From Pseudomonadota bacterium (GTDB lineage Bacteria > Desulfobacterota > Desulfobulbia > Desulfobulbales > CALZHT01): a DNA stretch of 64,000 nucleotides. The DNA lies in NCBI GenBank assembly GCA_018823135.1, contig JAHJJF010000051.1, positions 7,674-71,673 on the forward strand. Direction: 5' to 3'. The number at the start of each line of letters is the position of its first letter. Position 1 is the first letter of the stretch. The notes beneath the pieces are model-generated. The model made no database searches. It had not been told where the DNA came from and saw only the letters and a program-made list of their open reading frames with translations. Shown here piece after piece: positions 9,573 to 37,568 of the stretch. The position numbers and the translations under genes were made by a program.

Positions 9573-9630
9573 ATTACTTTGGCTTACGATTTATAGATTA
9601 TAAAGTATGTGTATTTGCAGTTTTAAAAAT

Positions 9631-9844
9631 TGTCGGACTCGCAAAAAGCACTCGTCGGACGCGTATTTCTCCTGCAACTTATTAAAATTACAGGTGGCGA
9701 TAATTCAGAATCCGGATTTTTGCGAACCCAGCAATTTTGTCGGACTCGCAAAAAGCACTCGTCGGACGCGTATTTCTCCTGCAACTTATTAAAATTACAG
9801 GTGGCGATAATTCAGAATCCGGCTTTTTGCGAACCCAGCAATTT
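9631..9844 (-). repeat. Tandem duplication of a 107-bp structured intergenic element (2 full copies, 1 mismatch) in the ispH 5' region
   Basis: 9631-9737 and 9738-9844 are identical except A9716 versus C9823. Partial related sequence flanks both ends. The strand is assigned from G.U-only pairings (see findings). Confidence 0.9.
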
Positions 9845-10083
9845 TGCGAAGACTTTAAACATAAACACTTGCTATTGCAAGTGGCATATATGACGCTCTT
9901 TACCCGATGAGATTTAAGTTTTTTCAGCCCGCCCAAAATGTTTTTTAAAATAGAAGATTTACAATCCTTCCTTTAAGTGCATATAGTTATAATAACAAAC
10001 AATGTTTAACAGGATCCGGTTATCAACTTGATTCACCGGAATTATCTCAAAATACAGCATTTACAGTGATAAGGAGGTGCGGC

Positions 10084-11544: not shown

Positions 11545-13950
11545 CTATTTCTTTTTTGATCTTTGTTTAATCAGCGCCAGATCGAATGCAGTCTGTATGT
11601 CATGAACAAAATGGAATTGTATGCCCTTTTTTACTTTATCGGGCATTTCCACTACATCTTTTTCATTTAAGCTTGGAAGAATCACTTCTTTGATTCCGGA
11701 ACGTATTGCGGCAAGGACTTTTTCCTTTATTCCCCCAACCGGCAGGACATCACCACGCAGGGTTATCTCACCAGTCATCGCTATATTTTTCCGCACCGGA
11801 CGCCCCGTCAACAATGATGCCAGAGCAACAACAATCGATACCCCGGCCGAAGGCCCGTCCTTGGGAATGGCTCCCTCGGGAACATGAATATGCAGATCGT
11901 TTTCAGCAAAGAGCTTATCGTTTATTTCAAGTTCCGCAGTATGAGAACGGATGTAGGTCAATGCCGCGGCAGCCGATTCCTTCATGACATCACCGAGCTT
12001 GCCGGTAAGAGACAATCCGCCTCTGCCGGTCATTTTGGCAGCTTCTATAAAAAGCAGCACGCCACCCACCGGTGTCCAGGCCAGACCCGTTGCCAGACCC
12101 GGCCCCCAGGACCGGGCTTTGGTCTCGGGAAAAAACTGTTGCAGCCCAAGAAAATTTGCCACTTCTTCCGGCGTAATAGTGACAAGTTTTTTCTTGCCGG
12201 AAACAATATCCTTTGCCACTCCCCGACACACCCCGGCAAGCTTTCTCTCGATGCCCCTTACTCCGGCCTCGCGGGTGTAGTATCTGATAATGTGGCGAAT
12301 GGCACTATCGGTAAATCGCAGATTATCGCGGGTCAGCGCATGCGCCTCAAGCTGTTTGGGAACCAGGTGCCGTTTGGCAATCATAACTTTTTCATGTTCG
12401 GTGTAGCCGGAAAGCTCGATTATTTCCATGCGGTCGCGAAGCGGCCCGGGAATATTATCAATAAAATTGGCCGTGGTAATGAACATGACCTTGGACAGAT
12501 CAAAAGGGATTTCCAGGTAATGGTCGGCAAAGGTGAAATTCTGCTCCGGATCGAGAACCTCAAGAAGCGCCGAAGATGGATCGCCCCGAAAATCCATACC
12601 AAGCTTGTCAATTTCATCAAGCATGAAAAGAGGATTATTCGAGCCGGTTTTTCTGAGACTCTGAATGATTCGTCCCGGCAATGCTCCGATATAAGTCCGG
12701 CGATGGCCGCGGATCTCAGCCTCGTCACGCACACCACCCAGGGAAATTCGCACGAACTTTCTGTTCATAGTCCTGGCGATGGACTGGCCCAGGGAAGTTT
12801 TCCCTACACCTGGCGGACCGCTGAAACAGAGAATCGGCCCATGCATGTCATTCTTCAATTTACGGACGGCAAGGAATTCGATAATTCTTTTTTTGATTAC
12901 CTCAAGACCATAATGGTCCTGATCAAGGGTTTTCTGCGCGTTATTAATATCCAGGGTATCCTTGGTGGATACTTTCCAGGGCAGCTCCAAGAGCCAGTCC
13001 AGATACGTTCTTGAAACAGTATATTCAGGAGAAGAAGGAGAAATTCTTTCCAGCCGGGCAAGCTCCTTTACCGCTGTTTTTTGAGCTTCCTCATCCAGAT
13101 CAGCTTCTTTCAGTTTTGTTTTCAGTTCTGCCAGATCAGGATTTTCCTGGTCCTCGCCAAGTTCTTTACGAATGGCCTTCAATTGTTGTCGGAGATAGAA
13201 TTCCTTCTGCTTCCCGTCCATGTCGTCCTTCACGTTTTTCTGAATCGCATTGCTCATTTCAACGGTTTCCAGTCGTCTGGAAAGCTCGCGTGATGTTGCT
13301 TGAAGGAGTTCCTTGAGGTTAACGAACTCAAGCAATCGCTGTTCTTCATCAATGGGCAGATTCAATTGAGAAATTATAAAATAGGCAACATGAGACGGTT
13401 CCTTGATTGAAGAAATGGTCATTTGTAGCTCAGAGGGCAGATTAGACAGATCAGTTAATTTCCTGAACTGGTTCTGCAAATTAAGGACAAAGGCGTCAAC
13501 TTCCTGATCAATATCTCCCTGCATGGGGTATTCTGTTACTTTTGCCTTATAAAATGGTTTTTTTTGAATGAAATCAGTCACCCGGATCCTTTTTACAGCA
13601 CTGACAAGCACTTGATAAAACCCTTCCTGGGCCTTGACCATTTTATGAATATAGCCCATTATCCCCACTGAATGAAGCTCGCCTGGAATAGTTTTTTTAT
13701 CGGCGTTTTCAGTCTGTTGCTGTGAAACAATTGCTACAAGCTTATCCCCCAGAAGCGCTTGATCGATCATCTGCTTGGATTGTGGATTCGTCACCTGCAG
13801 GGGAAATCCCATACCCGGAAAAAAAACAAATCCATAGATGGGTAATACCGACAACACTTCGGGAACCGGCAGTTGAACAGGATTCACCCCGCTGGAGGAC
13901 TTTTTTACGAAATCCGGAGTTTTTTTCATTTTATCAGGTTTATCAGTCAT
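11545..13950 (-). CDS. lon: ATP-dependent Lon protease
   Basis: 801 aa with a LON N-domain, Walker A GPPGVGKTS, and the protease motif DGPSAGV with catalytic Ser and Lys (KEKVLAA). Confidence 0.96.
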   Translation of the reverse strand: MTDKPDKMKKTPDFVKKSSSGVNPVQLPVPEVLSVLPIYGFVFFPGMGFPLQVTNPQSKQMIDQALLGDKLVAIVSQQQTENADKKTIPGELHSVGIMGYIHKMVKAQEGFYQVLVSAVKRIRVTDFIQKKPFYKAKVTEYPMQGDIDQEVDAFVLNLQNQFRKLTDLSNLPSELQMTISSIKEPSHVAYFIISQLNLPIDEEQRLLEFVNLKELLQATSRELSRRLETVEMSNAIQKNVKDDMDGKQKEFYLRQQLKAIRKELGEDQENPDLAELKTKLKEADLDEEAQKTAVKELARLERISPSSPEYTVSRTYLDWLLELPWKVSTKDTLDINNAQKTLDQDHYGLEVIKKRIIEFLAVRKLKNDMHGPILCFSGPPGVGKTSLGQSIARTMNRKFVRISLGGVRDEAEIRGHRRTYIGALPGRIIQSLRKTGSNNPLFMLDEIDKLGMDFRGDPSSALLEVLDPEQNFTFADHYLEIPFDLSKVMFITTANFIDNIPGPLRDRMEIIELSGYTEHEKVMIAKRHLVPKQLEAHALTRDNLRFTDSAIRHIIRYYTREAGVRGIERKLAGVCRGVAKDIVSGKKKLVTITPEEVANFLGLQQFFPETKARSWGPGLATGLAWTPVGGVLLFIEAAKMTGRGGLSLTGKLGDVMKESAAAALTYIRSHTAELEINDKLFAENDLHIHVPEGAIPKDGPSAGVSIVVALASLLTGRPVRKNIAMTGEITLRGDVLPVGGIKEKVLAAIRSGIKEVILPSLNEKDVVEMPDKVKKGIQFHFVHDIQTAFDLALIKQRSKKK

Positions 13951-17686: not shown

Positions 17687-18967
17687 CTACGAATCGTCCT
17701 TTTCCCGGTGGCAGAAGAAACAACCGTTAGTATCACTAGGACCGGTTGTGTGTGACATCATGCCTGAATAATCCCAGCGGAGCATGTCGGCATAGGGACT
17801 GCCATGCGACCTGTGACAGGAAACACACATGACCGTATCATTTTCAAGAACTGTTCCCGGGCTGCCCCCCACAAGAATTTTTCCCACCGGCACCAGTGGA
17901 TCATAACTTTTACCAATAACTCCGTTTGCTCCGCCATATTCACTCCCAGCGATATTCCGGATTCTAGCATCAGCAGGATGACGTATCCAGGGGCTATCAT
18001 TCTCACCTGAACCGCTGTAAGGTTCCCAGTCCCCCCAGTAATCTCCAGGAGCATGAAAATCCTGATGGCAACCAGCGCAAAAACGGCCCAATGTAGAAGG
18101 GATGATATAGGGGTCTTCAAAATCCCCGGCATAATAGATATTATGATTGCTGCCGCCAACAATGGCATCCCGTTCCCAGAGCGAATCCTCAACTCCGGTT
18201 ACCGGCTCAACATCTCCCGGTGACACCGAAGTATGCGTCTGCGGTTTCAAAAATCTATACCAACCGCTGCCGGCATCTTCCTGTGGCCCCGGAGAGGGAT
18301 CAGCGCCGTGGTGATCGGGGGTGTGGCAGGCCCTGCAGCCGTTTTCCCTCTCGGGTCCACCAATCTCCTTTTTATGGGCCAGACTTTCATGGCAGTCATT
18401 GGCATTTCCACAACCAATGGGATTACCTGGATTTGCAGTAAGTACCGAATCAATACCGGAAATGCCGTAAACATTATGGCCCCTGCCATCCTTATCAGCC
18501 TGAGAACCGGAGCCGTAAACCATCCAATAGAAATTGCCCCCGGCAAGCTGATTAGTCCCTCCAGGGAGGGGCGTTTTACTTGGTTCCTGCTGATTAAAAA
18601 CGATGGGGACGTTTGTGCCGCCAAGTGAGATTATGGTTTGATTGCCTGAGCTGCTGTGACATCCGACACAGTCACTGATAAGAAGCGTCGACTGCGGCGT
18701 GTGAGTAACGCCGCCTTGAATTCGTCCACCATCCCACCGGGCATACGTTCCGAATGTGCCGATGGCAACCATGGTGCTGGCGTTCTGGCTGTTGTGCATG
18801 CTATGGCAATTGGAGCATTGGCCGGTTACTTTTGCATAAACGGTTGACACGGTCCCTGCCAAAAAAATCAGGCACAAAAAAAGACATCGCCTGAATAACC
18901 CGTTCCACAGGATTCCAGGAATTGTCAGTGATATTTTTTTTCTATATTCCATTTTTAAAGCCCACAC
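17687..18967 (-). CDS. Multihaem cytochrome c (at least 6 haems), secreted or membrane-anchored
   Basis: Six CxxCH sites (CSNCH, CVGCH, CRACH, CAGCH, CVSCH, CFFCH) plus an atypical CGNANDCH. Hydrophobic N-terminus. The start may be the ATG at 18952 rather than the GTG at 18967. Confidence 0.88.
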   Translation of the reverse strand: MWALKMEYRKKISLTIPGILWNGLFRRCLFLCLIFLAGTVSTVYAKVTGQCSNCHSMHNSQNASTMVAIGTFGTYARWDGGRIQGGVTHTPQSTLLISDCVGCHSSSGNQTIISLGGTNVPIVFNQQEPSKTPLPGGTNQLAGGNFYWMVYGSGSQADKDGRGHNVYGISGIDSVLTANPGNPIGCGNANDCHESLAHKKEIGGPERENGCRACHTPDHHGADPSPGPQEDAGSGWYRFLKPQTHTSVSPGDVEPVTGVEDSLWERDAIVGGSNHNIYYAGDFEDPYIIPSTLGRFCAGCHQDFHAPGDYWGDWEPYSGSGENDSPWIRHPADARIRNIAGSEYGGANGVIGKSYDPLVPVGKILVGGSPGTVLENDTVMCVSCHRSHGSPYADMLRWDYSGMMSHTTGPSDTNGCFFCHREKDDS

Positions 18968-21531: not shown

Positions 21532-23190
21532 ATGATCCCAATAGGGTCGCCTGGAGGGAACTTTCAAGAAAGCAACGAAAACAAAATTGATCTTATTTAT
21601 GAAATAATCAAACATGAATACGGATCAATCCCCAAACTCATATCCACCCTGATTAGCGATGTAATTGATCTTTACGAAGGTCGCTGGCCGACTCATGAAG
21701 CCTGCATGGTCAGGTACCATACCCTTGACCATGCCGTTGATGTCGCTTTGCTCACGGCGAGGATGGCTTCCGGCTGGAACAGGCAGAAAGACCTGCCGAC
21801 CTTTTCCGAAGAAACCTTTCTCTGTGGACTTGCCGCCGCGATGTTTCACGACACCGGCTATATCAAGGACAAAGGCGACAAAAAAGGAACCGGTGGAAAA
21901 TATACCTTTACTCACGAACAGCGGAGCATGAAGCTTGCCGCAAAATACCTGGCAAAACACAAATGGTCTGCCTATGCGGTTGATACCGTGCCCCGCATCA
22001 TCAGCATTACTGAATACCATAATGAACCTGATCCGAAAGCCATTTTCGAAACAGATCCGGAAGAAAATATGGCTAAAATTGTTGCCACTTCCGATCTGGT
22101 CGCCCAGATGGCAGATATTAATTATATTCAACGGATCAATGACCTGTATGCTGAAATCAATGAAGCCTATGAGTTTGATTCCACCGAGATCCTGGCGAAA
22201 CGAGGCATTCATATCTTTAGTTCCGCCCAGGAAATGATTGACGAAACCATTGGTTTTTATGACACTTTCGTGTTGCCGCGCCTGCAACAGTTTGGCCGGA
22301 TGGACCAGTACCTTGTCGGTTTTTTCGGCGGCGGCCGGAACCCCTACCTTGAAAGCATTGCGGCAAATCTCTCCGGTCATCTGATGGATAAACGCATCCA
22401 ATGGCGGCGCCTGGGAGAAATACTTGAAGAACTCGGGGTGGTTAATTCCAGGCAAATAAAAAAAGCACTGGAAAAACAAAAGCGCATTAAGGACAAAGAA
22501 GCGCAAAGAAAAACCTCCGCCTTTTCCTTACAGGGCAAGCTTCATGACTGGATGGACAGCGCTTCACATTCCGGTAAATGCCTTGGTGATATTCTGATGG
22601 AGATGGGTGTCATCGATCCGACCATTCTCCGCAAAGGCATACTCGACCAGATCATGCCCCCTGCATTGATAAATAATCTCTCCTGCAAGGAATTGATTTT
22701 TATACTCAGGATATCAATACTCCTCCAGAATATCAGCAAAGGCCCCTGGGTCTTTGATCAGATCCTGGAAATGACCAATATTCTTCTTGATTGCGAGGCA
22801 AGTTCAATTCTTCTGGCAAACGATGATGCGTCGGAAATGACCGTCCTGATCCCCACCGGTCCCAAAAGAGACTATCTGCTGAAAAAGAAAATCCCAACGG
22901 ACAAGGGCCTTGCCGGCTGGGTGTTCCGGCATGGTCAACCGGCAGTAGTTACAAATGTTGAAATCGACAAACGTTTCGATGATGAAGTGGACAGACATAT
23001 CGGCTTCATCACCCGCTCCGTTCTTGCGGTGCCCCTCCACACCAACGGTGAGATGATCGGTGTCATGGAAGTGGTCAATAAAAGAAATGCCAATTTTAAT
23101 GTGCACGACATGGACATCCTGACCATGCTTGCCAATGTTATTGCCATATCCCTTGGCGGGCTTGTCAAAATGCACGAAGATATATCCTGA
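21532..23190 (+). CDS. HD domain / GspE_N (MshEN-like) repeats / GAF domain signalling protein
   Basis: 552 aa. HD motifs (HTLDHAVDV, FHDTGY); two RLGxxLxxxGhhxxxxLxxxLxxQ-type repeats (RLGEILEELGVVNSRQIKKALEKQ and CLGDILMEMGVIDPTILRKGILDQ); C-terminal GAF (GLAGWVFRHGQPAVV...SVLAVPL). Confidence 0.82.
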   Translation: MIPIGSPGGNFQESNENKIDLIYEIIKHEYGSIPKLISTLISDVIDLYEGRWPTHEACMVRYHTLDHAVDVALLTARMASGWNRQKDLPTFSEETFLCGLAAAMFHDTGYIKDKGDKKGTGGKYTFTHEQRSMKLAAKYLAKHKWSAYAVDTVPRIISITEYHNEPDPKAIFETDPEENMAKIVATSDLVAQMADINYIQRINDLYAEINEAYEFDSTEILAKRGIHIFSSAQEMIDETIGFYDTFVLPRLQQFGRMDQYLVGFFGGGRNPYLESIAANLSGHLMDKRIQWRRLGEILEELGVVNSRQIKKALEKQKRIKDKEAQRKTSAFSLQGKLHDWMDSASHSGKCLGDILMEMGVIDPTILRKGILDQIMPPALINNLSCKELIFILRISILLQNISKGPWVFDQILEMTNILLDCEASSILLANDDASEMTVLIPTGPKRDYLLKKKIPTDKGLAGWVFRHGQPAVVTNVEIDKRFDDEVDRHIGFITRSVLAVPLHTNGEMIGVMEVVNKRNANFNVHDMDILTMLANVIAISLGGLVKMHEDIS

Positions 23191-27151: not shown

Positions 27152-28764
27152 CAATGACAGAAAACAACCTTTTGCAGATTAAGAATCTCTCCATGGGATT
27201 CCATACGGAATCCGGCTTCTCGCCGGTGCTCGATGAGGTCTGCCTTGAAATCGCCAGGGGCGAAACCGTGGCCCTTGTTGGAGAATCCGGTTCCGGTAAA
27301 TCGGTCACCGCCCTGTCTATCCTGCAATTATTGGAGCGCCAGACCGTGCAGTCCAGCGGCGAGATCATCTTTGAAACCAAGGATATGCTCAAACTCCCGG
27401 AAGCGCAGTTACGGAAAATCCGCGGCAACAGAATCGCCATGATTTTCCAGGAACCCATGACCTCGCTCAATCCGGTCTATTCCATCGGCAACCAGCTCAT
27501 TGAACCGCTGATGCTTCATCAGGGGCTTGATAAAGATACAGCCCGATCACGCGCCATTGAACTTCTTAAAACAACAGGAATTTCAAATCCGGAAGACCGT
27601 ATCAATAATTACCCGCACCAGTTATCAGGCGGCCAGCGACAGCGGGTGATGATCGCCATTGCCCTGGCCTGCCATCCGGTTCTGCTCATTGCCGACGAAC
27701 CCACCACTGCATTGGATGTAACTATTCAGGCCCAGATCCTTGCGCTGATCCGTGACATCCAGCAGGAAATGAACATGGCAGTGCTGCTGATCACCCATGA
27801 TTTGAATATGGTGAAAAAATTCGCCCGGCGCCTCTACATCATGCATCAGGGAAAAATCGTTGAACACGGCATGACCAAAGATATTTTTTCATCGCCCAAA
27901 GCCCCCTATACCATTCATCTTCTTAACAGTGTGCCATCCGGAGAACCAGCCCCTAAACCGGCATCAGCACCGATCCTGACGATCAACAACCTGCAATGCT
28001 CCTTTTCCCTGAAAGCCGGTTTTTTCAAACGCCAGGTGGGTGAAATCCGGGCCGTTGACCAGGTAAGCATCACCATCCGCCAGGGCACTACTTACGGCAT
28101 CGTCGGCGAATCCGGTTCCGGCAAGAGCACCCTGGGGATGTGCATTCTACGGCTCACCGGCTGCAACGGTGAAATCCTTTACAACGATGAGAACCTTCTT
28201 TCCCTGACCAACAGACAAATGCGGCCTTTACGAAAAGAATTCCAGGTGGTGTTTCAGGACCCCTTTGCCTCCCTTTCGCCACGGCTCACCGTGGAACAGA
28301 TAATCGCCGAAGGCCTCCAGGTCCATAAGCCGGAATTATCAAAAGAACAAAGACGCAAATCCGTTGAGGCGGCGCTTACCGAAGTCGGCCTGGAACAGGA
28401 TATGGCCCAGCGGTATCCCCACGAATTTTCCGGCGGGCAGCGGCAGCGCATCGCCATTGCCCGGGCGATGATCCTTAAACCGAAGTTTCTCATCCTGGAC
28501 GAACCAACCAGCGCCCTGGACATGACCATTCAAGCCCAGATCATCGATCTTCTGCGGGATTTCCAGAAAAAATACGGCATGACCTATCTGTTCATTTCCC
28601 ATGATCTTCGGGTAATCCGTGCCATGGCCGATGATATCGCTGTGATGCAAAACGGCAGAATCGTTGAATCCGGTCAGGCAGCTGAAATATTCCGCAACCC
28701 GCAACATCCCTACACCAGGCAACTTTTTTCAGCCGCATTCAATCTTGACATCATCACCCCGTAA
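27148..28764 (+). CDS. yejF: ABC transporter ATP-binding protein with duplicated ATPase domains (YejF-like)
   Basis: 538 aa with two Walker A sites (GESGSGKS twice), two LSGGQRQR signatures, and an ATGA overlap with yejE. Confidence 0.93.
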
Positions 28765-28912
28765 TCATTATTCAAAACTGTTAACCGGGAAATGCTTATT
28801 TAATGACGTTAACCTCTTCTTGTCCGGTTAGTGAGGCAATATAGTTCCCCCAAAAGGGATAAAAAATCCCCCCCTCCAGAACCATATCATGCAAATACCG
28901 CTGAACTGAATA

Positions 28913-30217
28913 TCAATGAGTTGCACAGGTTAGACACGGGTCAAACATCCGGATACATCTGCCAATCTGCTTTTCCCCCTGCGGTGAAATACTATTTCCA
29001 GAGATATGACCTTGCGCCAGATCCCTTAAAACCATATTGATATAGGCATTATTAAATTGCGTTGCAACCAGAAGTCGTAACCGCTCGATCTTTCCCCTAT
29101 TCACCAGATAACTATGAACCAGCACTCCACGTGGCGCTTCAACAATTCCGATGCCACGGCCGCTCACATCAAAATCAATCTCCGGTGTGGCAAGGTCCTG
29201 CAATTTTATTTTCTTGAGTAGCGCAAGGATCTGTTTTGCTGAAAGAAATATCTCAAGCAGGCGGGCAGTATCAAAGCTGTCCAAATATGTTGTCACATTC
29301 TGCTTGAGGTGTTTGGTGATTCCAAGGTCTTTGAGGTCTTCGTCCTGAAGTACGCCATTATCCTGATAGACTCGTGACAACGGTCCGACAAGAAGAATTC
29401 CCCCAGGAAATCCCATATGGGTGAGATAGGGGAATTTTGCAAATGACCAATCAACCCGAAGCTCGGAGATATGGTCTTCAAGGGAATCGCCGGAAAATTC
29501 CTGACAAACCTTGCCCTGGTCGTCAAAAACCCTGAATTTTTCCCGGCCTGGACGTCCATCATATGTAAGGAAATTAACCCGTTGCCCGGCAGGATAAGGA
29601 ATGCTGTTATGCCCGTAATGATCTTTATCAAGAGTGGAAATCAGGTGGTAGGTGGTTGCTTTAATCTCGGCCGCAATCCGTTTAATTTCATTCAGTTCCT
29701 CTTCAGTGGGCAGAATATTAAACCGGCCGACGGCCATGGACACGGGATGCACAGCGCGTTTGCCGACGATTTCGATGATGCGGTTCCCTGCTTTTCTCAG
29801 GAAAAATGCATCCTCGGCAACTTTAGGATACATCTTTTTCAGATCAAAAAGCCCCTTTGATGAACCAATCAGATCGGGATAAGTCAGAAAAAAATAACTC
29901 AAGGCGTGGCTGCTGATTCTCTCTCCCAGAAGGGCAACCTGCCGAAGCATGTCAACCGAGGGTTCCACCTCGAGGCCCAGGGCATTTTCAACCGCCCTGA
30001 AACCAGCAACCTGATGCGCTGTACTGCATAATCCGCAGATTCTGGAAATGATATGCGGCGCCAGCTCGATACGTTTGCCAATCATGATTTTTTCAAATGC
30101 TCTGAAATCCTGGACCATGAAACGCGCCGCCTTAAGCTCGCCATCTTCCACCTCAATATGGATGTCAGCATTCCCTTCAATCCGCGTTGCTTTTTGAAGA
30201 ACTATTTCCCTGCTCAC
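28913..30217 (-). CDS. [NiFe]-hydrogenase large subunit (group-3-like), no C-terminal extension
   Basis: 434 aa with N-terminal RICGLCSTAH and C-terminal DPCLTCATH followed directly by the stop codon. The GTG start overlaps the small-subunit stop (GTGA). Confidence 0.9.
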   Translation of the reverse strand: MSREIVLQKATRIEGNADIHIEVEDGELKAARFMVQDFRAFEKIMIGKRIELAPHIISRICGLCSTAHQVAGFRAVENALGLEVEPSVDMLRQVALLGERISSHALSYFFLTYPDLIGSSKGLFDLKKMYPKVAEDAFFLRKAGNRIIEIVGKRAVHPVSMAVGRFNILPTEEELNEIKRIAAEIKATTYHLISTLDKDHYGHNSIPYPAGQRVNFLTYDGRPGREKFRVFDDQGKVCQEFSGDSLEDHISELRVDWSFAKFPYLTHMGFPGGILLVGPLSRVYQDNGVLQDEDLKDLGITKHLKQNVTTYLDSFDTARLLEIFLSAKQILALLKKIKLQDLATPEIDFDVSGRGIGIVEAPRGVLVHSYLVNRGKIERLRLLVATQFNNAYINMVLRDLAQGHISGNSISPQGEKQIGRCIRMFDPCLTCATH

Positions 30218-32073
30218 CTGACCCTCATTTTATTAATTTCATTGGAGACCATATCCTGTCTGAGGCTGAATAAGCCGTATTCCTGTTGCTGCAGTTTTTT
30301 TGCAATCTTACGGACATCCTTACGCTCCAGATTGCATCTCTTGGTCAATGAGTCGATGACCACTTCACCATAAGATGATCCATCATATAATTTTTTAAAA
30401 ACCATGTCAGATGGACCTCTGCATCCCCAACAGGACAAACCGTTTTTAGTACAGACGCCGCCGCAACCGCCGCGGGTGAGAAATCCCAGGCAGATCATGC
30501 CATTGGAAACGAAACAGATATTGCTGTCGTCGCTTGCAGAAAACGACTGCAGAGAATTTGAATTATTCCTGGTCACCTTCCGACCGCATTCAGCGCAAAC
30601 CACAGGTGCCACCTTTGGAAATTTTTCGCCATTCATTTCGGAGATGAGATCCATCAAAAGTCGAGGCTGGGGCGGGCAGCCGGCTAAAAAAAAGTCGACC
30701 CTGACATAATTTTCAAGATTCCTGGCTCGCCTGAGGAGGCTGACCCCTCTTTCCTGGTAGGTTGTTTGCAGATCTATGCCGCCCTTGCCTGAAAGATAAT
30801 AAGAAAAAGCATCATGGGCCATGCCATAGGTCTCCTCAATCAGCTCCTCAAGTTCAAAGCGATTGGCCATAGCCGGGACTCCTCCGGTTGCGGCGCAGGT
30901 TCCCCAGGCAATGAGAATTCGAGACTTGTTTCTAGCTTCTTCCAGAATATTCACATCATCTTTAAGACGGACCGCGCCTTCCACCAAGGCAATGTCAACT
31001 TCGGGTATTTCGTCCTGATCCAGAAGCATCGGGCAGTAAACGATTTCCACATTACTCTTAAGCAGTTCATCAAACACCGGGTCATCAATAAGCACTGCAG
31101 AGCACCCCGAGCAGGAAGACAGAGATATCATCGCGATTTTTATGGTTTGCTTTTTGCTGACTAGCGCGCCCCAATTCTGCGGGATAAGGGTGGAGGCCAT
31201 ATACGGGTTGGCGAGCAGAGCATTCTGCCTTCTTAATCGTAAAATCAGAGACTGGAGAATATGAAGGGCGAGTTCGGGTTTTTTTCGAATCTTTTCAAAA
31301 AATTCATCCTGGCTCAACGATACCAACAAAGTCTTTGAGGTAGCCAGAGCAGTGGCTGTTCTCTTGCAACCGCTGATAGTTGCCATCTCTCCAAAAAAAC
31401 CACCGGGGCCAAGAGTGGTGAGCACACATTTTTCTTTTCCGGATTGAATACTTACCTCGATAGAACCTTGTGCAACAAAAAACATAGACTTGGCAGACTC
31501 CCCTTCTTCAAAAATAACCTGGCCCTGCTCCACCCACTCCTCATTGCCTTCAGCATTCCAGATTTTCGAAATGTCTTTAACGGAAATGTCATTCCAGAGA
31601 ATTCCCTGGAAATCCTTTGTCCCGGTGCTGACCATTTTTGAAATGAGGGCACCGGGGCTTAACTCCTGGCTCATACCGAGAGCCAGACGCAGTGTTTCAT
31701 TTTCCACTGCCACTTCCCTGACTTTCTGACTGGATTGGTGTATACGCAGAATAATGCCGCGAAGCAGATGCAGAGAAACACCTGAGTCCTGCCGCATCTT
31801 TTCAAGAAGTGCTTCCCTGGTAAAACAAAGAAGTCGAGTTCGCTCGATTGCTTTGACGGTTGTAAGACGAAGATGGTCGGGAAGCAAGGCAACTTCACCA
31901 AAAAATTCCCCCTTTTCAAGAATGCAGAGGGAGACATTCTCCTCACCTCTCTTGTGGGAAACTTCAACCGCGCCGGATTGGATGATATACAATGAATCGC
32001 CAGAATCATCCTGCTTATATATCACTTTACCTTTTTCATATACGGCACCAAAAAGGTCTTCACCCGCGTTCAT
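30214..32073 (-). CDS. Fusion protein: two cyclic-nucleotide-binding domains plus [NiFe]-hydrogenase small subunit
   Basis: 619 aa. Residues about 1-290 hold two cNMP-binding domains (FGEVALLPDHLRLTTVKA and FFGEMATISGCKRTATALA). From about residue 308 there is a small subunit with SSCSGC, GTCAATGG and AGCPP cysteines, plus distal-cluster cysteines CAEC, GGCGGVC and CWGCRGP. Confidence 0.85.
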   Translation of the reverse strand: MNAGEDLFGAVYEKGKVIYKQDDSGDSLYIIQSGAVEVSHKRGEENVSLCILEKGEFFGEVALLPDHLRLTTVKAIERTRLLCFTREALLEKMRQDSGVSLHLLRGIILRIHQSSQKVREVAVENETLRLALGMSQELSPGALISKMVSTGTKDFQGILWNDISVKDISKIWNAEGNEEWVEQGQVIFEEGESAKSMFFVAQGSIEVSIQSGKEKCVLTTLGPGGFFGEMATISGCKRTATALATSKTLLVSLSQDEFFEKIRKKPELALHILQSLILRLRRQNALLANPYMASTLIPQNWGALVSKKQTIKIAMISLSSCSGCSAVLIDDPVFDELLKSNVEIVYCPMLLDQDEIPEVDIALVEGAVRLKDDVNILEEARNKSRILIAWGTCAATGGVPAMANRFELEELIEETYGMAHDAFSYYLSGKGGIDLQTTYQERGVSLLRRARNLENYVRVDFFLAGCPPQPRLLMDLISEMNGEKFPKVAPVVCAECGRKVTRNNSNSLQSFSASDDSNICFVSNGMICLGFLTRGGCGGVCTKNGLSCWGCRGPSDMVFKKLYDGSSYGEVVIDSLTKRCNLERKDVRKIAKKLQQQEYGLFSLRQDMVSNEINKMRVR

Positions 32074-32322
32074 TTTAACATACCCTTACTGATTTTTTCC
32101 GTTTGTGGCCATGGTTAGAAATAATGTGAAAATCCCAAAAGAAGATCATCAATACCCTTTCAGCTACTTTCAGTCAACCAAAGAATATGGATTTTTTCAC
32201 AGAGCGCCGTCCCTCTGAATTCCTTTCAAAACTTCAGAACAAAACTTGTAATCTTCGTAAAAATCCATAAACGGTACAAATTTAAATGAAGGTAATTTGA
32301 TCACTGGTGTCGACATGCCTTA

Positions 32323-32351
32323 TTGATCTAAAAATCAAATAATGCTACAAT
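32323..32351 (+). promoter_or_regulatory. Putative sigma70-type promoter for the CHASE2 kinase / PP2C operon
   Basis: TTGATC-N17-TACAAT about 120 nt upstream of the ATG at 32470. Confidence 0.5.
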
Positions 32352-32469
32352 GTTATTAATTTTCCTGTGGAGTTTTGATGGTTCCAATCCCAATACGTTT
32401 ATCTGTATAAAAAAACGAAAGATTCGGAAGATAAAAATACACTCACGCCTGAGACCATAAAACGACAAA

Positions 32470-35031
32470 ATGAACAGTATTAAACCGCATCATCTCTCTA
32501 AATGGATAATCTGTTCATTTCTTACCATCCTGATTATTATCGCCTCACTCTTTGATTTCTATCCCCTGCAGTTCCTGGAAAACAAGGTCTACGACCAGAT
32601 GTCACGCCTCCGGCCGCAAGACCCCGCGGAAAATATTGCGGTAATCGCCATTGATGACAATAGCATTAAAGAAATCGGCCCCTGGCCCTGGCCCCGATCA
32701 AAAATTGCCGAGATGGTCCAGTATCTTGCCGGTCATGGAGTTGATGCCATCGGCATTGATCTTTTATTTTCAACTCCGGAAACCAATGACGGGTTGGATG
32801 CAATCAATAACCTCCGGGCATGGCTGAAACAAAACGCCTCAAGGCTTGATGCAAATTCAAGCACACTCTTTGAAAAAAGGCTCAATCAGGCTTCCATTGA
32901 TATTGATAACGACACAAGACTGTTCTCAGCATTGATGCCGGCCAAAAATGTCGTTCTCCCTTTTTATTTCAACTATGACGGAAAATCGAAAAACAACGAG
33001 CAGGTCAACCTGGAAGATGCCGGGCTTCTCAAACATTCCATCCCGGATTCTGAACCCAAAGCCGATTTCAAAACCCTGCTGCTCAGCCTGCATAACCCGG
33101 TCATGGCTCTCAAGAATCATCAAGCCGCACCAGATGAAATTCTCACTACCCACAAAACACTTGCTAAGGCAGCCGGCGCCCACGGACACATAAACATCTC
33201 CCCTGACCCGGACGGTGTAGTGCGCCATGAAGCGCTCTTTTTCGAAAACCAGGGACGACTTTTCCCTTCTTTAGCCGTGCAGCTTGCTCTTGCCTATAAA
33301 GGAATCAAGCTCAAAGACCTGGAAACGACAAAAAAAGAAAAAAACTTTACCGGTATCCGGATTGGCGATCTTAAGGTCCCCACAGAAGCCGGCTACCAGA
33401 TGTTCATCAATTACAATGTAAACCGTGATAAACTGGTTTATTCTTTTACCGATGTACTGAACGGCAAGGTGCCGGATGAGACATTCAAGAATAAAGCGGT
33501 AATGATCGGGCTTACCGCTCATCCACCCGCAGCACTTCATTCCTCCCCGGTCCACAAGAAAATTTCCGATGTCGAAATCAAGGCCCAGGCTTTTGAAAAC
33601 ATTTTCTCTGAAAACCCGATCAAACGCCCCTACTGGGCATGGGCTCTTGAAACCGCTGTTCTGTTGTATTTCGGCTTTTTTATTCTTTTTGTGATTTCGC
33701 GGGTCAGCATCCGGCTCGGCGCCCTGATCCTCGGAAGCTTTCTTGCGGTCTGGTACGTCATTGTCTTGGCCATGTTCTACAGCGCCGACATCTGGTTTAA
33801 AGCCGCAACCCCGACCATTCTTGCAATCGGCGGATATTTATCGATTATCGCGGTGCGGAAATTTTCCGTTGCCTACAAACAGGATGAACACTCGGAAACC
33901 AATAAGATGCTGGGTATCTCCTTTCAGGGCCAGGGACTTCTCGACATGGCTCTCGAGTACTTCATGAAATGCCCGCTGCGGGATCCATCAGTCAAAGAAA
34001 AGCTCTATAACCTCGGCCTGGATTTTGAACGCAAAAGGATGTTCAACAAAGCTGTTTTCGTGTATGAGCATATCTCGAATGCCGGCGATTTCAAGGATAT
34101 CAAAGAAAAAATAATCCGCCTCAAATCAGCGGAGCAGCAGATCCATATGGGTTCCACCGGAAACATGCGGAATGAGGCGACCATGCGCCTGGACAGTGCT
34201 GACACCCTGCCCACCCTGGGACGTTATGAAATCATGCGGATTCTTGGTCAGGGTGCAATCGGCACGATCTATCTCGGCAAAGACCCGAAGATAAACCGTG
34301 AAGTGGCGATCAAGACCCTTCGTTACGAAGAAACCAACGAAAAGGAATTCAAAGATGTTAAAGACCGTTTCCTGCATGAAGCCGAAGCTGCCGGACGCCT
34401 GAACCATCCCAATATCGTAACCATCTATGATGCAGGGGAAGACATGGACGTTATTTACATGGCCATGGAACTCCTTACCGGTAAAGATCTCACCGCGTAC
34501 ACCAAGGAAGGCTCCCTGCTGCCGGCAAAAGAGGTCATCAGGATAATCATCAAAGTTGCAGAGGCCTTGAATTATGCCCATGATAACGCCGTGGTTCATC
34601 GTGATATAAAACCGGCAAATATCATGCTGCTTGATAAAGGGCAGGTAAAGGTTACTGACTTCGGTATTGCCAGGCTGATGAATGCCTCCCAGACCCAGAC
34701 CGGTGTTGTTATCGGCACTCCGAATTATATGTCGCCGGAGCAGGTGCTCGGCAAACGGGTTGACGGACGATCGGACCTGTTCTCCCTGGGCTCGGTGTTT
34801 TATGAGCTTCTTACCGGCTTAAAGCCCTTCAAGCATGATAATATCGGGCCGCTGATGCATAATATCGCCAGCTGCAATTTCAAACCTTTGATCGATGTCG
34901 CCCCTCTGCTGCCCGAATGCTGCGGGGCAATTATCAACAAATTGCTGGTCAAAGATCCCAACAAGAGATTCCAGAACGCCGACACAGTTGCCAGAAAACT
35001 ACAAGAATGCCTTAAAGAAATAGAAGGGTAA
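32470..35031 (+). CDS. CHASE2 sensor domain Ser/Thr protein kinase
   Basis: 853 aa. N-terminal TM; an extracytoplasmic CHASE2-like region (IAVIAIDDNSIKEIGPWPWPR); three TM helices; a TPR-like linker; a Hanks kinase domain (GQGAIGTIY, VAIK, HRDIKPANIML, DFG, GTPNYMSPE). Confidence 0.9.
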   Translation: MNSIKPHHLSKWIICSFLTILIIIASLFDFYPLQFLENKVYDQMSRLRPQDPAENIAVIAIDDNSIKEIGPWPWPRSKIAEMVQYLAGHGVDAIGIDLLFSTPETNDGLDAINNLRAWLKQNASRLDANSSTLFEKRLNQASIDIDNDTRLFSALMPAKNVVLPFYFNYDGKSKNNEQVNLEDAGLLKHSIPDSEPKADFKTLLLSLHNPVMALKNHQAAPDEILTTHKTLAKAAGAHGHINISPDPDGVVRHEALFFENQGRLFPSLAVQLALAYKGIKLKDLETTKKEKNFTGIRIGDLKVPTEAGYQMFINYNVNRDKLVYSFTDVLNGKVPDETFKNKAVMIGLTAHPPAALHSSPVHKKISDVEIKAQAFENIFSENPIKRPYWAWALETAVLLYFGFFILFVISRVSIRLGALILGSFLAVWYVIVLAMFYSADIWFKAATPTILAIGGYLSIIAVRKFSVAYKQDEHSETNKMLGISFQGQGLLDMALEYFMKCPLRDPSVKEKLYNLGLDFERKRMFNKAVFVYEHISNAGDFKDIKEKIIRLKSAEQQIHMGSTGNMRNEATMRLDSADTLPTLGRYEIMRILGQGAIGTIYLGKDPKINREVAIKTLRYEETNEKEFKDVKDRFLHEAEAAGRLNHPNIVTIYDAGEDMDVIYMAMELLTGKDLTAYTKEGSLLPAKEVIRIIIKVAEALNYAHDNAVVHRDIKPANIMLLDKGQVKVTDFGIARLMNASQTQTGVVIGTPNYMSPEQVLGKRVDGRSDLFSLGSVFYELLTGLKPFKHDNIGPLMHNIASCNFKPLIDVAPLLPECCGAIINKLLVKDPNKRFQNADTVARKLQECLKEIEG

Positions 35032-35043
35032 TTCAGGTCAATC

Positions 35044-35814
35044 GTGAAAATTCTTACCGCAGGCCTGACCCATAAAGGGCTTGTAAGAAAAACCAATCAG
35101 GACTGCTTTCTAGTCTGTGACCAGTCGCCATCACTTTATATCGTCGCCGACGGCATTGGCGGCAACCTCGCGGGTGAAGTAGCCAGCCGCATGGCAGTTG
35201 ATATCATAAAGGACCATATCAGCAGCGTAAGGTCCGGTGATCAGCCCTATATGAACGGCTTTGACAGATCCCTCTCCGAGTCCCGAAACCGCCTGACTTC
35301 AGCAATACAACTTGCCAACCACATCATCTATCTTGCTTCCAAGGAAAAAACCGAATGGAAAGGAATGGGCACCACCGTTGCGGCAGCCTGGCTTTCCAAA
35401 AGAAATGAACCAAATCTTACCATCGGCCATGTGGGCGACAGCCGCATCTTTCTCATTCGTAATAATACGATCAGGCAGCTCACCAAAGACCATTCGATAC
35501 GCGTTGAACGACGCCAGAACGATTTTCTGCAGGTCTCAACCCATGCATTGGGTCCGCAAATAAAAAATTATCTTTCCCGTGCCGTTGGCACTGATAAAAA
35601 TGTCTGCGTCGACACCCGGGAAATTAAAATTCTCCCGCAGGATAGGTTTCTTCTGGCAAGCGACGGCTTGACCAATATGATAAGCGATGAGGTTATTTTG
35701 AAAATTCTCTGCTCAGAGAACAATCCTGAAAGCGCCTCACAACATTTGATTGACGCAGCAAAAAAGAACGGCGGCCGGGATAATATTACGGTTATTGTGA
35801 TTCATTCGAAATGA
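35044..35814 (+). CDS. PP2C-family Ser/Thr phosphatase
   Basis: 256 aa with ADGIGG, GMGTT, VGDSR, LASDGL and GGRDNITV motifs. GTG start 12 nt after the kinase stop. Confidence 0.9.
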   Translation: MKILTAGLTHKGLVRKTNQDCFLVCDQSPSLYIVADGIGGNLAGEVASRMAVDIIKDHISSVRSGDQPYMNGFDRSLSESRNRLTSAIQLANHIIYLASKEKTEWKGMGTTVAAAWLSKRNEPNLTIGHVGDSRIFLIRNNTIRQLTKDHSIRVERRQNDFLQVSTHALGPQIKNYLSRAVGTDKNVCVDTREIKILPQDRFLLASDGLTNMISDEVILKILCSENNPESASQHLIDAAKKNGGRDNITVIVIHSK

Positions 35815-36074: not shown

Positions 36075-37568
36075 TCAGGATTTATTCAACCGCGTGATAT
36101 GTTCGAGTCCAAGGCTTGCATGGCGGGCAAAGTTTTCGAAATTCTCAAAGCTCATCTGGTCCATGTCGCGGCCGCTGGGGATGCGGTCACAATAAAACAG
36201 GCCAATGGTTTTGCCGCTGACGATTATCGGCGACACAAAAAATTCATCGCCGCCGACGAGCTCCTTGATTTCATCGGACACGAGGTCCGCCACTGAAGAT
36301 TGCGGCTGGCCGATCCAGACGCTCAGATTGTTGTCAAGGACGGTCTTAAAAAGATTCCTTCTCCCGGAAGCGATAAAAATTTTAAACCGTTCAAGCATCT
36401 TTGTCCTTTCAAATCCCAGGACGAATCGCGCATTGAGGTATTGATGGTCCGGGGATACAAGGGCAAACAATGTCCGGTCCATGCCGACTCCCCGGTAAAT
36501 GCCTTCAAGGGTCATTTCAAGAAGCACGTTGAAATTCGGCTTTTCAAAAAGCAAGGCGGTCATCTCGCGAAGAATATCCAGTTGCAGAAGCGGATTATAT
36601 TGCGGGATCTCAGAAGTTTTCGGTTCAAACTCCTCCACCGTGTCGATCATGGACCCATCAGTTTGCTTCGAAACACGACGATCATCTTTGCCCGGCTTGT
36701 AAGGTATTGGAATAATATTTGCCACCTTGCTGACTCCATAGGTCCTGCTCACCCTGGCGGCTTCAAGAGCATTGCCCTGAATCATCTCCTGTATCTCATC
36801 ACGGCCAAAACCCGATATCCGGCTATATTCCCTGACGGTATCAGCCACCTCCTCACTCTGCCAGCCTTTTTCAGCCGCAGCTGCTAGGTCATAACTGATA
36901 TTGATCAGTTGTCCTCTCTTGCCAACTTTCTTCTTGGGGTCCAAGGCTTCTTCGAGCAGAGAATTCAGGTGCCAGTCCTGGACCAGTCGCTGGGTCAATT
37001 TGCGCAACGGAAATCCCAACACCTTCTGCTCCGCCTCTTCCCGAGGAACGCCTTTCTTTATCTCGGCCTTCAAGGCCTCCCCTTCCTGCTTGGCAAAACA
37101 CCAGAAAGCAAGCTCACCGATATTATGCAGCAGGGTTGCGACAAAGATTTCTTCAGAAGATTTGTCTCCCATTTTTTCCGCCATGGACCTCGCCTGGGTG
37201 GCGGCGTGCAGAGATCTGGCAAGTTCGGCCATGAGCAGATCGCGGTTTGCTGAGCGGACAATGGATTCCACCAGAGCAACGGTCAGAGTGATTGCCCGCA
37301 CCTTGTCAAAACCCATGAGCATGATCGCCCGGCTTATGGTACTGATGCTTTTATTTGAAGGATTATAAAAGGCGGTATTGGCAAGTTTTAACACCTTGGC
37401 AGTCATAGCCGTGTCCTGCAATACCACCCTGGTCAATTCCGAAACGGAACTGTCGCTGTTTTCCGCAACACTTACGATTTCCTGAACAGTGCGGCCGAAA
37501 ATCGGCATATCTTCCTGGTTAAGTCGCTGGAGCCAGGCATCAAAATTATTCTCAGGTTTTTTGGACAT
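36075..37568 (-). CDS. HDOD domain / GAF domain signalling protein
   Basis: 497 aa with an N-terminal HDOD region (LKLANTAFYNP...LLHNIGELAFW) and a C-terminal GAF-like domain. Confidence 0.82.
   Translation of the reverse strand: MSKKPENNFDAWLQRLNQEDMPIFGRTVQEIVSVAENSDSSVSELTRVVLQDTAMTAKVLKLANTAFYNPSNKSISTISRAIMLMGFDKVRAITLTVALVESIVRSANRDLLMAELARSLHAATQARSMAEKMGDKSSEEIFVATLLHNIGELAFWCFAKQEGEALKAEIKKGVPREEAEQKVLGFPLRKLTQRLVQDWHLNSLLEEALDPKKKVGKRGQLINISYDLAAAAEKGWQSEEVADTVREYSRISGFGRDEIQEMIQGNALEAARVSRTYGVSKVANIIPIPYKPGKDDRRVSKQTDGSMIDTVEEFEPKTSEIPQYNPLLQLDILREMTALLFEKPNFNVLLEMTLEGIYRGVGMDRTLFALVSPDHQYLNARFVLGFERTKMLERFKIFIASGRRNLFKTVLDNNLSVWIGQPQSSVADLVSDEIKELVGGDEFFVSPIIVSGKTIGLFYCDRIPSGRDMDQMSFENFENFARHASLGLEHITRLNKS

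Follow-up and report, generated by a model that had tools for sequence, protein, structure and literature searches.

Can a [NiFe]-hydrogenase be switched directly by a cyclic nucleotide? This question is raised by two overlapping genes in the 64,000-nucleotide stretch of contig JAHJJF010000051.1 (assembly GCA_018823135.1) that is called the window below. The upstream gene encodes a 619-aa fusion protein in which two cyclic-nucleotide-binding (CNB) domains precede a [NiFe]-hydrogenase small subunit, and the downstream gene encodes a 434-aa large subunit. Hydrogenases are regulated at transcription and by redox or O2 inactivation, and we know of no description, in the literature searched or otherwise, of second-messenger allosteric control of a [NiFe]-hydrogenase. 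Our results suggest that the pair forms a cytoplasmic enzyme of two subunits, a [NiFe]-hydrogenase in a group 3 clade of its own, whose activity or access to a partner would be gated by cyclic AMP (cAMP) or cyclic GMP (cGMP); from sequence comparisons, we give this reading a probability of about 0.5.

Both open reading frames (ORFs) lie at 30214-32073 and 28913-30217 on the minus strand, exactly where an earlier sequence-only reading of this DNA had placed them, and the junction, read directly from the DNA (...AAA ATG AGG GTC AGG TGA, overlapping GTG AGC AGG), is the GTGA overlap that it had described. All the motifs quoted in that reading (SSCSGC, GTCAATGG, AGCPP, CAEC, GGCGGVC, CWGCRGP, RICGLCSTAH and DPCLTCATH) were found in the translations. 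In the 619-aa protein, Pfam finds PF00027 (cNMP_binding) twice, with E 9.4e-44 and 147.7 bits against a cut-off of 27.5, and PF01058 (Oxidored_q6) once, at aa 321-479 with E 1.3e-24, which agrees with the proposed two cyclic nucleotide monophosphate (cNMP)-binding domains at the N-terminus and the small subunit behind them. The 434-aa protein matches PF00374 (NiFeSe_Hases, E 5e-25). No Tat motif was found in the fusion protein, the N-terminus of which is the first CNB domain (CNB-A). At the 3' end of the large-subunit gene (...CCG TGT CTA ACC TGT GCA ACT CAT TGA, read directly) the stop codon follows His434 at once, so that the large subunit indeed has no C-terminal peptide; reference large subunits carry 4-25 residues beyond the final His.

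A fusion of this kind might arise artificially, through an assembly error or a frameshift that merges a CRP-like gene with a small-subunit gene, which we consider extremely improbable here. Two independent assemblies encode the identical 619-aa protein, one being the NCBI metagenome-assembled genome (MAG) GCA_018814865.1 ('Proteobacteria bacterium') and the other a Logan assembly. Moreover, a survey for the same fusion, which the sequence-only reading had suggested together with a check for assembly error, found, among 5.8 billion proteins, full-length CNB-CNB-small-subunit fusions in more than 120 clusters, with identities of 40-49%; at least 118 full-length homologues exist, from many projects and assemblers, and the conservation counts given below rest on 118 of them. 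Most of them are from MAGs of Chloroflexota/Anaerolineae and of deltaproteobacteria, and from Joint Genome Institute (JGI) sediment, wetland and peat metagenomes, where they are labelled 'F420-non-reducing hydrogenase small subunit'; cultured hosts were sought through the cluster members, which proved to be MAG and metagenome sequences only, with no isolate. A metagenome scan using the hydrogenase module alone gave 80 loci, to which seven others were added, and in all of them the N-terminal region is complete wherever no contig end interrupts the small-subunit gene. Small- and large-subunit genes overlap in nearly all related loci, and in each of the 60 loci where the contig includes the 3' end of the large-subunit gene, the protein closes with DPCL[ST]CATH directly before the stop codon. 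A scan of a genome collection with the full-length alignment was swamped by the generic CNB motif, and its sole true relative was L011. With HMMER over 1.84 billion cluster representatives, the family forms a discrete block of about 20 representatives (245-310 bits, matched from residue ~300), below which a gap separates it from ordinary MvhG-like subunits of ~290 aa (at most 176 bits and 39% identity).

The few split relatives are what an artefact could appeal to: a 156-aa CNB ORF ahead of a truncated small subunit (L157:159-3367), a JGI contig with P0121 plus P0122, and a locus (L174:742-3806) that has, one after the other on the same strand, two genes with one CNB domain each (128 and 136 aa), a small-subunit gene (313 aa) and a large-subunit gene (433 aa). 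Order and strand are preserved in these cases, each of which either stems from a long-read assembly or is all but identical to intact genes; in L174 and L157, the split could reflect true gene fission or else an indel or frameshift error of long-read sequencing. Apparently unfused members (P0136-P0138) were considered as a CNB-less form of the enzyme and this was rejected, the one examined being a split CNB + CNB + small subunit.

The case for a cyclic nucleotide begins with the CNB domains themselves. The Gly-Glu...Arg-x-Ala pattern of the phosphate-binding cassette is found in them, the window protein having R-L-T-T in CNB-A and R-T-A-T in the second domain (CNB-B). In CNB-A, G59, E60 and R69 are each kept in 118/118 homologues, A71 in 109 and T72 in 110; in CNB-B, G228 is kept in 118/118, E229 in 113 and R238 in 111, and a Ser or Thr follows the Arg in 87. 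Both cassettes, which had been singled out for a check, are thus intact and near-invariant, and specificity for cAMP versus cGMP cannot be read from these residues. In a fold search, the closest folds to the pair were the tandem CNB-A/B of PKG and PKA-R, the matches also including cAMP-independent, nucleoside-binding PKA-R proteins. Judged by these motifs, the CNB domains of the fusion are genuine, with their putative ligand-binding motifs intact. Residues 291-310 connect the C-terminal helix of CNB-B with the first small-subunit strand, which bears Cys321 and Cys324. An AlphaFold2 (AF2) run on the fusion protein as a single chain, with a 24-sequence alignment, predicts helices at 267-288 and 290-295 and a strand at 311-317 around this linker; the CNB domains are modelled confidently (predicted local distance difference test, pLDDT, 80-90), the FeS module has a pLDDT below 50 and the predicted template modelling score is 0.46. 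CNB C-terminal helices are the usual exit point of CNB allosteric output, and the linker might therefore have a coupling role.

The hydrogenase part seems to be that of a working enzyme. Twelve cysteines are invariant in the small-subunit module (321, 324, 393 and 466; 493, 496, 520 and 528; 537, 541, 548 and 551), a number that is enough for three predicted [4Fe-4S] clusters, and the C-terminal tail is conserved, with R-I/V-R as its last residues. The large subunits of the family have signatures of their own (RIEGN instead of RIEGH; S-RICGLC; HQ), and they keep the proton-transfer Glu (RIEG), the Arg of EAPRG and all four Ni-Fe cysteines. With the L1 and L2 motifs, the RIEG Glu, the EAPRG Arg, the 12 cluster cysteines and the C-terminal tail in place, the enzyme looks catalytically complete.

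By NCBIfam and the Protein Data Bank (PDB), the nearest relatives of the small subunit are VhuG/MvhG, and those of the large subunit are HydL (7t2r_D), MvhA (5odc_F), HoxH (5xf9_D) and sulfhydrogenase alpha (ShyA). All these are group 3 enzymes, in line with the affiliation first proposed, and group 1 and 2 chains match the large subunit only over its N-terminal ~115-185 aa. The NCBIfam scores are all far below the equivalog cut-offs (VhuA 171.5 bits vs 800; VhuG 176.5 vs 450). Within the family, large subunits are at least 43% identical (median 54%); they share 26-33% with any solved group 3 enzyme and 29-32% with MvhA/VhuA, whereas the 3c, 3d and HydL references are mutually 41-52% identical (52% within 3c). 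In a neighbour-joining tree, the family, including a variant with an additional FHA domain, is one long branch, sister to 3c + 3d + HydL, with 3b as outgroup. The L1/L2 motifs, the best similarity to group 3 and the lack of a Tat signal are as in group 3; a co-encoded cofactor-reducing module (FrhB, HyhBG, MvhD/Hdr or HoxFU) is missing within +/-10 kb of the window pair and in most relatives, and a C-terminal extension with its endopeptidase is missing as well. As for group 3c, the VhuA/VhuG equivalog scores are not reached and MvhD/FlpD and Hdr genes are not adjacent in the window; as for group 2b, the absent extension is shared, the group 2 affiliation and the adjacent histidine kinase or response regulator are not. 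The nearest other clade examined, represented by L172, has a large subunit with a 27-residue extension past the His and a downstream HybD/HycI-type protease (GVGNPLRGDDGVG), and the lack of both is thus a derived trait of the family.

The sequence-only reading could not place this architecture in the known hydrogenase classes. Two 2021 papers, a Chloroflexi preprint that proposes a 'group 3e' (West-Roberts et al., bioRxiv 10.1101/2021.08.23.457424) and a sulfate-reducer MAG paper that independently names a 'Group 3e' (Zhao & Biddle, PMC9723726), change this in part. Their descriptions, by which alone the match is made, are of a divergent large-subunit clade close to 3c/3d that was met in Anaerolineae and, in PMC9723726, in MAGs of sulfate reducers, with a large and a small subunit only, no accessory or electron-transfer genes, and an enzyme that 'may interact with unknown partners'. 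Our tree and the gene contexts of the related loci agree with these descriptions, and our family is probably this provisional group. The large-subunit clade is therefore probably not new, and what stands of the original remark is the CNB fusion, which neither paper mentions: the terms 'cyclic nucleotide', 'cNMP' and 'cAMP' occur in neither text. The HydDB scheme has no cNMP-linked class, the closest being 2c, 'diguanylate cyclase-linked (putative)'.

The coordinates of the gene pair, of its neighbours in the window and of the signalling genes found beside related pairs are given in Table 1.

Table 1. Features of the gene pair and of its surroundings (window coordinates, or handles of related loci; aa, residues of the encoded protein).
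Feature	Location	Strand	Remarks
Fusion gene (619 aa, ATG start)	30214..32073	(-)	CNB-A, linker, CNB-B, linker, [NiFe]-hydrogenase small subunit; stop 30214-30216
CNB-A (aa ~8-125)	31699..32052	(-)	PF00027; AF2 pLDDT 80-90
CNB-A phosphate-binding cassette FFGEVALLPDHLRLTT (aa 57-72)	31858-31905	(-)	
Inter-CNB linker (aa 126-170)	31564..31698	(-)	Low-complexity; length and sequence vary in alignment; pLDDT 27-47
CNB-B (aa ~171-290)	31204..31563	(-)	PF00027; AF2 pLDDT 80-90
CNB-B phosphate-binding cassette FFGEMATISGCKRTAT (aa 226-241)	31351-31398	(-)	
CNB-B/small-subunit linker (aa 291-310)	31144..31203	(-)	Short, conserved; P290 invariant, K307 near-invariant
Small-subunit module (aa 311-619)	30217..31143	(-)	PF01058; MvhG 5odc_E aligns over aa 311-559
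Large-subunit gene (434 aa, GTG start)	28913..30217	(-)	Stop 28913-28915; no C-terminal extension
L1 motif RICGLCSTAH, large subunit (aa 59-68)	30014-30043	(-)	
L2 motif DPCLTCATH, large subunit (aa 426-434)	28916-28942	(-)	
Intergenic region, divergent (hydrogenase operon / CHASE2-kinase operon)	32074..32469		AAGGG Shine-Dalgarno-like ~10 nt before ATG
CHASE2 sensor + Ser/Thr protein kinase (853 aa)	32470..35031	(+)	Pfam; divergent from hydrogenase operon; candidate associated gene
PP2C Ser/Thr phosphatase (256 aa)	35044..35814	(+)	Operon with CHASE2-kinase; candidate associated gene
Candidate cNMP phosphodiesterase, HD + GAF (552 aa)	21532..23190	(+)	5.7 kb beyond large subunit
Class-II phosphodiesterase, convergent, directly after large subunit	L102, L110, L113, L114		
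Class III cyclases	L004 and L174 (both CHASE2-cyclase), L102, L110, L136 (three copies)		
CNB-GAF	L113, L114		
CNB-Ser/Thr kinase	L104:12248-13654, L121:4925-6193, L145:13130-14578		N-terminal CNB, PKA/PKG-like one-chain architecture
SulP-STAS-CNB	L125, L164		
MMPL-CNB	L011		
PP2C in-operon, directly after large subunit	L121, L145		Between large subunit and CNB-kinase

Which genes accompany the pair across the family bears directly on its function. In a Pfam census of 93 flanking genes (two per side, from 56 non-redundant loci), the top families were cNMP_binding (10), GAF (5), Guanylate_cyc (4), PDEase_II (4) and Pkinase (4). A near/far control with local profiles, those for cyclases and phosphodiesterases (PDEs) being seeded from near genes, classed as cNMP-related 20 of the 153 genes located no more than three positions from the pair, vs 2 of the 141 more distant genes (odds ratio ~10; p = 7.5e-5, one-sided Fisher test). 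These matches are spread over most sub-clades of the tree and the gene types differ, which argues for repeated association and not for one inherited block. Because both cassettes are near-invariant and the neighbours are enriched for cyclases, PDEs and CNB proteins, a real involvement of cyclic nucleotides becomes much more likely. Ser/Thr kinases also neighbour the pair in L102 and L110. Where the pair has metabolic genes beside it, these encode redox carriers (OYE/Pyr_redox_2 in L094, ETF + ApbE in L011/L150, PFOR + ferredoxin in L008), and an Hdr/Flx-like cluster with FlpD stands directly upstream of it in L006/L091 only, that is, in 1 of ~50 non-redundant contexts. This cluster (L006:567-9870; L007 is identical, and the L091 small subunit is at least 90% identical) comprises a 1475-aa HdrA/GltD-like fusion, FlpD, ferredoxin-like proteins, a CCG (HdrB-like) protein and a FlxA-like FAD/NAD protein, with Aminotran_5/NifU/TusA genes downstream; it is a possible lineage-specific electron partner.

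In the window itself, the divergent CHASE2-kinase may be associated with the hydrogenase pair; L004, L119 and L174 likewise have genes for CHASE2 proteins next to their pairs. The 552-aa HD-GAF protein has a class-I PDE match (E 0.0018) below the cut-off and a weak match to 'Npun_R2479', a family of which a protein also adjoins the CHASE2-cyclase of L174; it is a weak lead towards a cNMP phosphodiesterase. No diaphorase, MvhD/Hdr, protease or hyp gene was found within +/-10 kb of the pair, as had been noted from the sequence for its immediate surroundings, nor in the other annotated parts of the window, and no HisKA/HATPase (histidine kinase) or response-regulator gene adjoins the pair. A promoter and terminator scan of 28600-32600 gave counts not above the shuffled expectation, and no signal was assigned there. 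Next to the kinase/PP2C operon lies a gene for a 497-aa protein with the signalling domain HDOD (36075-37568, minus strand). About 10 kb from the pair, a 426-aa ORF (17687-18967, minus strand) has a doubled CXXCH / MtrC-like multihaem cytochrome signature; it is too distant, and too unconserved in the relatives, to count as a hydrogenase partner. The annotated remainder of the window is housekeeping. Also noticed in the window were a 574-aa ORF (7848-9572, minus strand) with LytB/IspH at aa 3-274 and a UbiA-family prenyltransferase at aa 307-546, an apparent fusion of the last enzyme of the methylerythritol phosphate (MEP) pathway to a membrane prenyltransferase for which a gene-position index has no entry with the exact product, and a 750-aa molybdopterin oxidoreductase (52293-54545, minus strand; Molybdop_Fe4S4, Molybdopterin, Molydop_binding), near which rhodanese and sulfur-transport genes lie at ~48-50 kb.

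Small subunits of group 3 type fused to other signalling domains were also encountered. P0128 (L173:6205-8385) is an FHA-CNB-CNB-small subunit protein, its extra FHA domain being phospho-Thr-binding, and its partner is a family-type large subunit of 432 aa that ends at the His. P0223 (L172:10001-11842), 3c/3d-like, is a small subunit of 34% identity with an N-terminal Ser/Thr kinase domain; in its operon, a polyferredoxin-FlpD (MvhD-like) gene (8336-9919) precedes it, and a 478-aa large subunit (11839-13275) with a 27-aa C-terminal extension and a HybD/HycI-like protease (13276-13755) follow. P0241 (409 aa) is a group 3-type small subunit with an N-terminal effector-associated domain 2 (EAD2), a domain otherwise seen in conflict and STAND-NTPase systems. 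In the literature we found no description of a kinase-hydrogenase fusion like P0223, and signalling-domain fusions to group 3 small subunits are apparently a wider, undescribed theme. Domain order (N-terminal input, C-terminal output) was considered as a means of telling enzyme from sensor and was dropped, the kinase of P0223 being N-terminal on a small subunit of catalytic type.

How might a cyclic nucleotide act on such an enzyme? H2 would be split or formed at a normal Ni-Fe site of the large subunit, and electrons would run through the three predicted [4Fe-4S] clusters of the small subunit. The PKA-R/PKG-like tandem CNB module would bind cAMP or cGMP, which class III cyclases encoded close by would supply and neighbouring PDEs would degrade. 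The ligand might then shift the C-terminal hinge/lid helix of CNB-B, which the linker ties to the strand with the first proximal-cluster cysteines, and the shift might turn the enzyme on, or off, by altering the relay or the subunit interface. Alternatively, the switch could uncover a docking surface at the distal cluster for a soluble partner, perhaps a ferredoxin, a flavoprotein or an Hdr/Flx-type complex. Ser/Thr phosphorylation (kinase, PP2C, FHA) could provide a second layer of control. Such gating is the most economical explanation of three features taken together: the domains fused within the family (the two CNB domains, and FHA in P0128) are input or adaptor modules only, the catalytic and relay residues are intact, and cNMP genes are associated with the pair.

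The sequence-only reading had left two options, a cNMP-gated hydrogenase or an H2/redox sensor, and both are still the leading ones. Several of our observations weigh against gating. The CNB-A cassette of the window protein, R-L-T-T, is atypical compared with the R-[SPT]-A-T of the family, and the AF2 model yields no usable inter-domain geometry, which leaves the coupling route to pure inference. Kinship among the loci, and cyclase and PDE profiles built from near genes, weaken the neighbourhood statistics; a cNMP gene lies within three genes in only 13 of the 49 loci with flank, and many Anaerolineae loci have none. No conserved electron partner was found in the family neighbourhoods, a result that fits a sensor equally, and a large subunit without C-terminal extension is typical of HoxC/HupV H2 sensors and of Ech/Coo enzymes, not of group 3. 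The main rival, which we consider possible although rather unlikely, is accordingly a regulatory hydrogenase that would sense H2 or redox state and relay the redox state of its FeS clusters and its cNMP occupancy by protein contact. By analogy with HoxBC-HoxJ or the PAS-containing group C [FeFe]-hydrogenases, its receivers might, again with less than even odds, be the co-encoded Ser/Thr kinases, PP2C or cNMP-turnover enzymes. The HoxC/HupV-like end of the large subunit at the His in 60 of 60 loci with no endopeptidase gene nearby, the absence of a conserved redox partner, and the recurring signalling neighbours (CHASE2-kinase + PP2C in the window, PP2C + CNB-kinase in L121 and L145, CNB-kinase in L104, kinases in L102 and L110) are consistent with this, as are the FHA domain of P0128, the hydrogenase-kinase coupling that P0223 demonstrates within group 3, and the fact that HydDB already lists a putative second-messenger-linked sensor class, 2c. 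However, the fusion protein has no output domain, CNB and FHA being input or adaptor modules, several lineages have redox-enzyme neighbours, and the sequence affiliation is with group 3 and not with sensory group 2. The kinase-fused P0223, moreover, stands in a classical catalytic Mvh-like operon (FlpD, 27-aa extension, protease), so that fusion to a signalling domain need not imply a sensor.

It is also conceivable, if distinctly improbable, that the CNB-like domains bind another ligand, such as NAD(P)H as proposed for HoxI or nucleosides as in kinetoplastid PKA-R, or that their role is purely structural or in oligomerisation. A 3d enzyme has a CNB-like subunit, HoxI, the annotation of an actinobacterial 3b cluster includes a CNB protein, and nucleoside-binding, cAMP-independent PKA-R proteins are among the fold matches; the atypical CNB-A cassette of the window would fit as well. 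Against this, the Gly-Glu...Arg-x-Ala cassette, the part of a CNB domain in contact with the ribose and the cyclic phosphate, is almost invariant in both domains over 118 sequences, the neighbours are enriched specifically for cyclases and cAMP phosphodiesterases, and Pfam finds in the pair no flavin- or NAD(P)-binding module with which NAD(P)H could serve as substrate. Less probable still is an ordinary hydrogenase of Mvh type (3c) that supplies a bifurcating, Hdr/Flx-like complex with genes elsewhere, the CNB domains being a minor lineage-specific decoration. The closeness of the small-subunit module to MvhG/VhuG, the JGI annotation and the position of the L006/L091 pair directly after an HdrA-like/FlpD/CCG/FlxA-like cluster would suit it. 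The family, however, is a separate long branch whose large subunits have 29-32% identity to MvhA/VhuA vs the 41-52% seen among the 3c, 3d and HydL references, with NCBIfam scores far below cut-off; neither the window nor all but a very few of the loci have MvhD/FlpD, an extension and a protease are lacking, and the CNB tandem is not sporadic but kept family-wide under clear purifying selection.

If the pair is gated by, or reports to, a cyclic nucleotide, no hydrogenase before it would have had so direct a link to such a second messenger, be it as target or as informant. It might then be one fused effector, among CNB-kinases, CNB-transporters and CNB-GAF proteins, of a compact cAMP/cGMP and Ser/Thr-phosphorylation module that couples environmental sensing by CHASE2 cyclases and kinases to H2 metabolism in anaerobic sediment bacteria, a picture that we put forward tentatively, at slightly under even odds. 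Three features appear to be new: the fusion to cyclic-nucleotide-binding domains, a maturation peptide lost throughout the family, and neighbouring genes of cNMP and Ser/Thr-kinase type. Gating or sensing would give a function to a widespread, partner-less 'orphan' clade that is probably counted as 3c or provisional 3e in surveys of sediment, wetland and peat metagenomes, and H2-flux inferences resting on this clade would need revisiting. In addition, it would provide a natural ligand-switchable hydrogenase, and a group 3 enzyme that matures without an endopeptidase would make expression in a foreign host easier. In that case, the FHA, Ser/Thr-kinase and EAD2 fusions of related group 3 small subunits would point to a broader class of [NiFe]-hydrogenases coupled to signalling that has gone unrecognised.

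Compared with known systems, the pair is closest in its subunits to Mvh/Vhu (3c; MvhAGD-HdrABC; PDB 5odc, 9sw2), which provides the best small-subunit relative, with three [4Fe-4S] clusters, and is among the best large-subunit relatives; both are cytoplasmic and have no Tat signal, and one relative (L006/L091) stands beside a FlpD cluster. The window family differs by its low identity (29-32%), its separate clade and its lack of MvhD and of an extension and protease, and Mvh has no N-terminal tandem CNB module. In the provisional group 3e papers, the CNB domains, the absent C-terminal extension and the cNMP-gene neighbours go unmentioned, and one of them calls the enzyme periplasmic, which is at odds with the CNB domain at the start of our small subunit and with the lack of a Tat signal. 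With HoxBC/HupUV (2b), the family shares a large subunit without maturation peptide and a two-subunit core linked to signalling proteins, and with group 2c the proposal that H2 is connected to a nucleotide second messenger; in contrast to 2b, the window pair is of group 3 and has no adjacent histidine kinase or response regulator, and in contrast to both, the link here would be made by fused CNB domains and by Ser/Thr kinase, PP2C or cyclase neighbours. Group C [FeFe]-hydrogenases likewise combine a signalling-domain fusion with co-encoded genes of Ser/Thr phosphatase/kinase type (PMC11216029), although they belong to another superfamily, their fused PAS domain is C-terminal and they have no cyclic-nucleotide link.

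In the literature searched on hydrogenases and cyclic nucleotides, only HoxI and the CNB protein annotated in an actinobacterial 3b cluster were found, and no CNB fusion is described there. HoxI is a CNB-fold subunit of the Ralstonia eutropha soluble hydrogenase (3d, HoxHYFUI2) and is thought to mediate NADPH activation, according to the part of PMC12319191 that cites Burgdorf 2005. In both cases, a CNB-fold module with a proposed regulatory nucleotide-binding role is attached to a group 3 [NiFe]-hydrogenase. However, HoxI is a separate, easily dissociating subunit on the HoxFU diaphorase and a proposed NADPH binder, whereas the window has two covalently fused CNB domains, no diaphorase or HoxFU-like gene, and cassettes that look cNMP-competent. 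The tandem CNB-A/B fold with canonical cassettes is shared with PKG I beta (4z07), PKA RI alpha, Mt-Pat and Bd1971. The fusion has no inhibitor or dimerisation segment N-terminal to CNB-A, unlike PKA-R and PKG, and its regulated partner would be the electron relay of a metallo-enzyme, for which we found no precedent. In Mt-Pat, Bd1971, PKG and HCN channels the enzyme or output attached to the CNB domains is the regulated part, and the fusion has the arrangement of CNB-regulated enzymes, with the presumed regulatory module N-terminal to the catalytic part that it would regulate.

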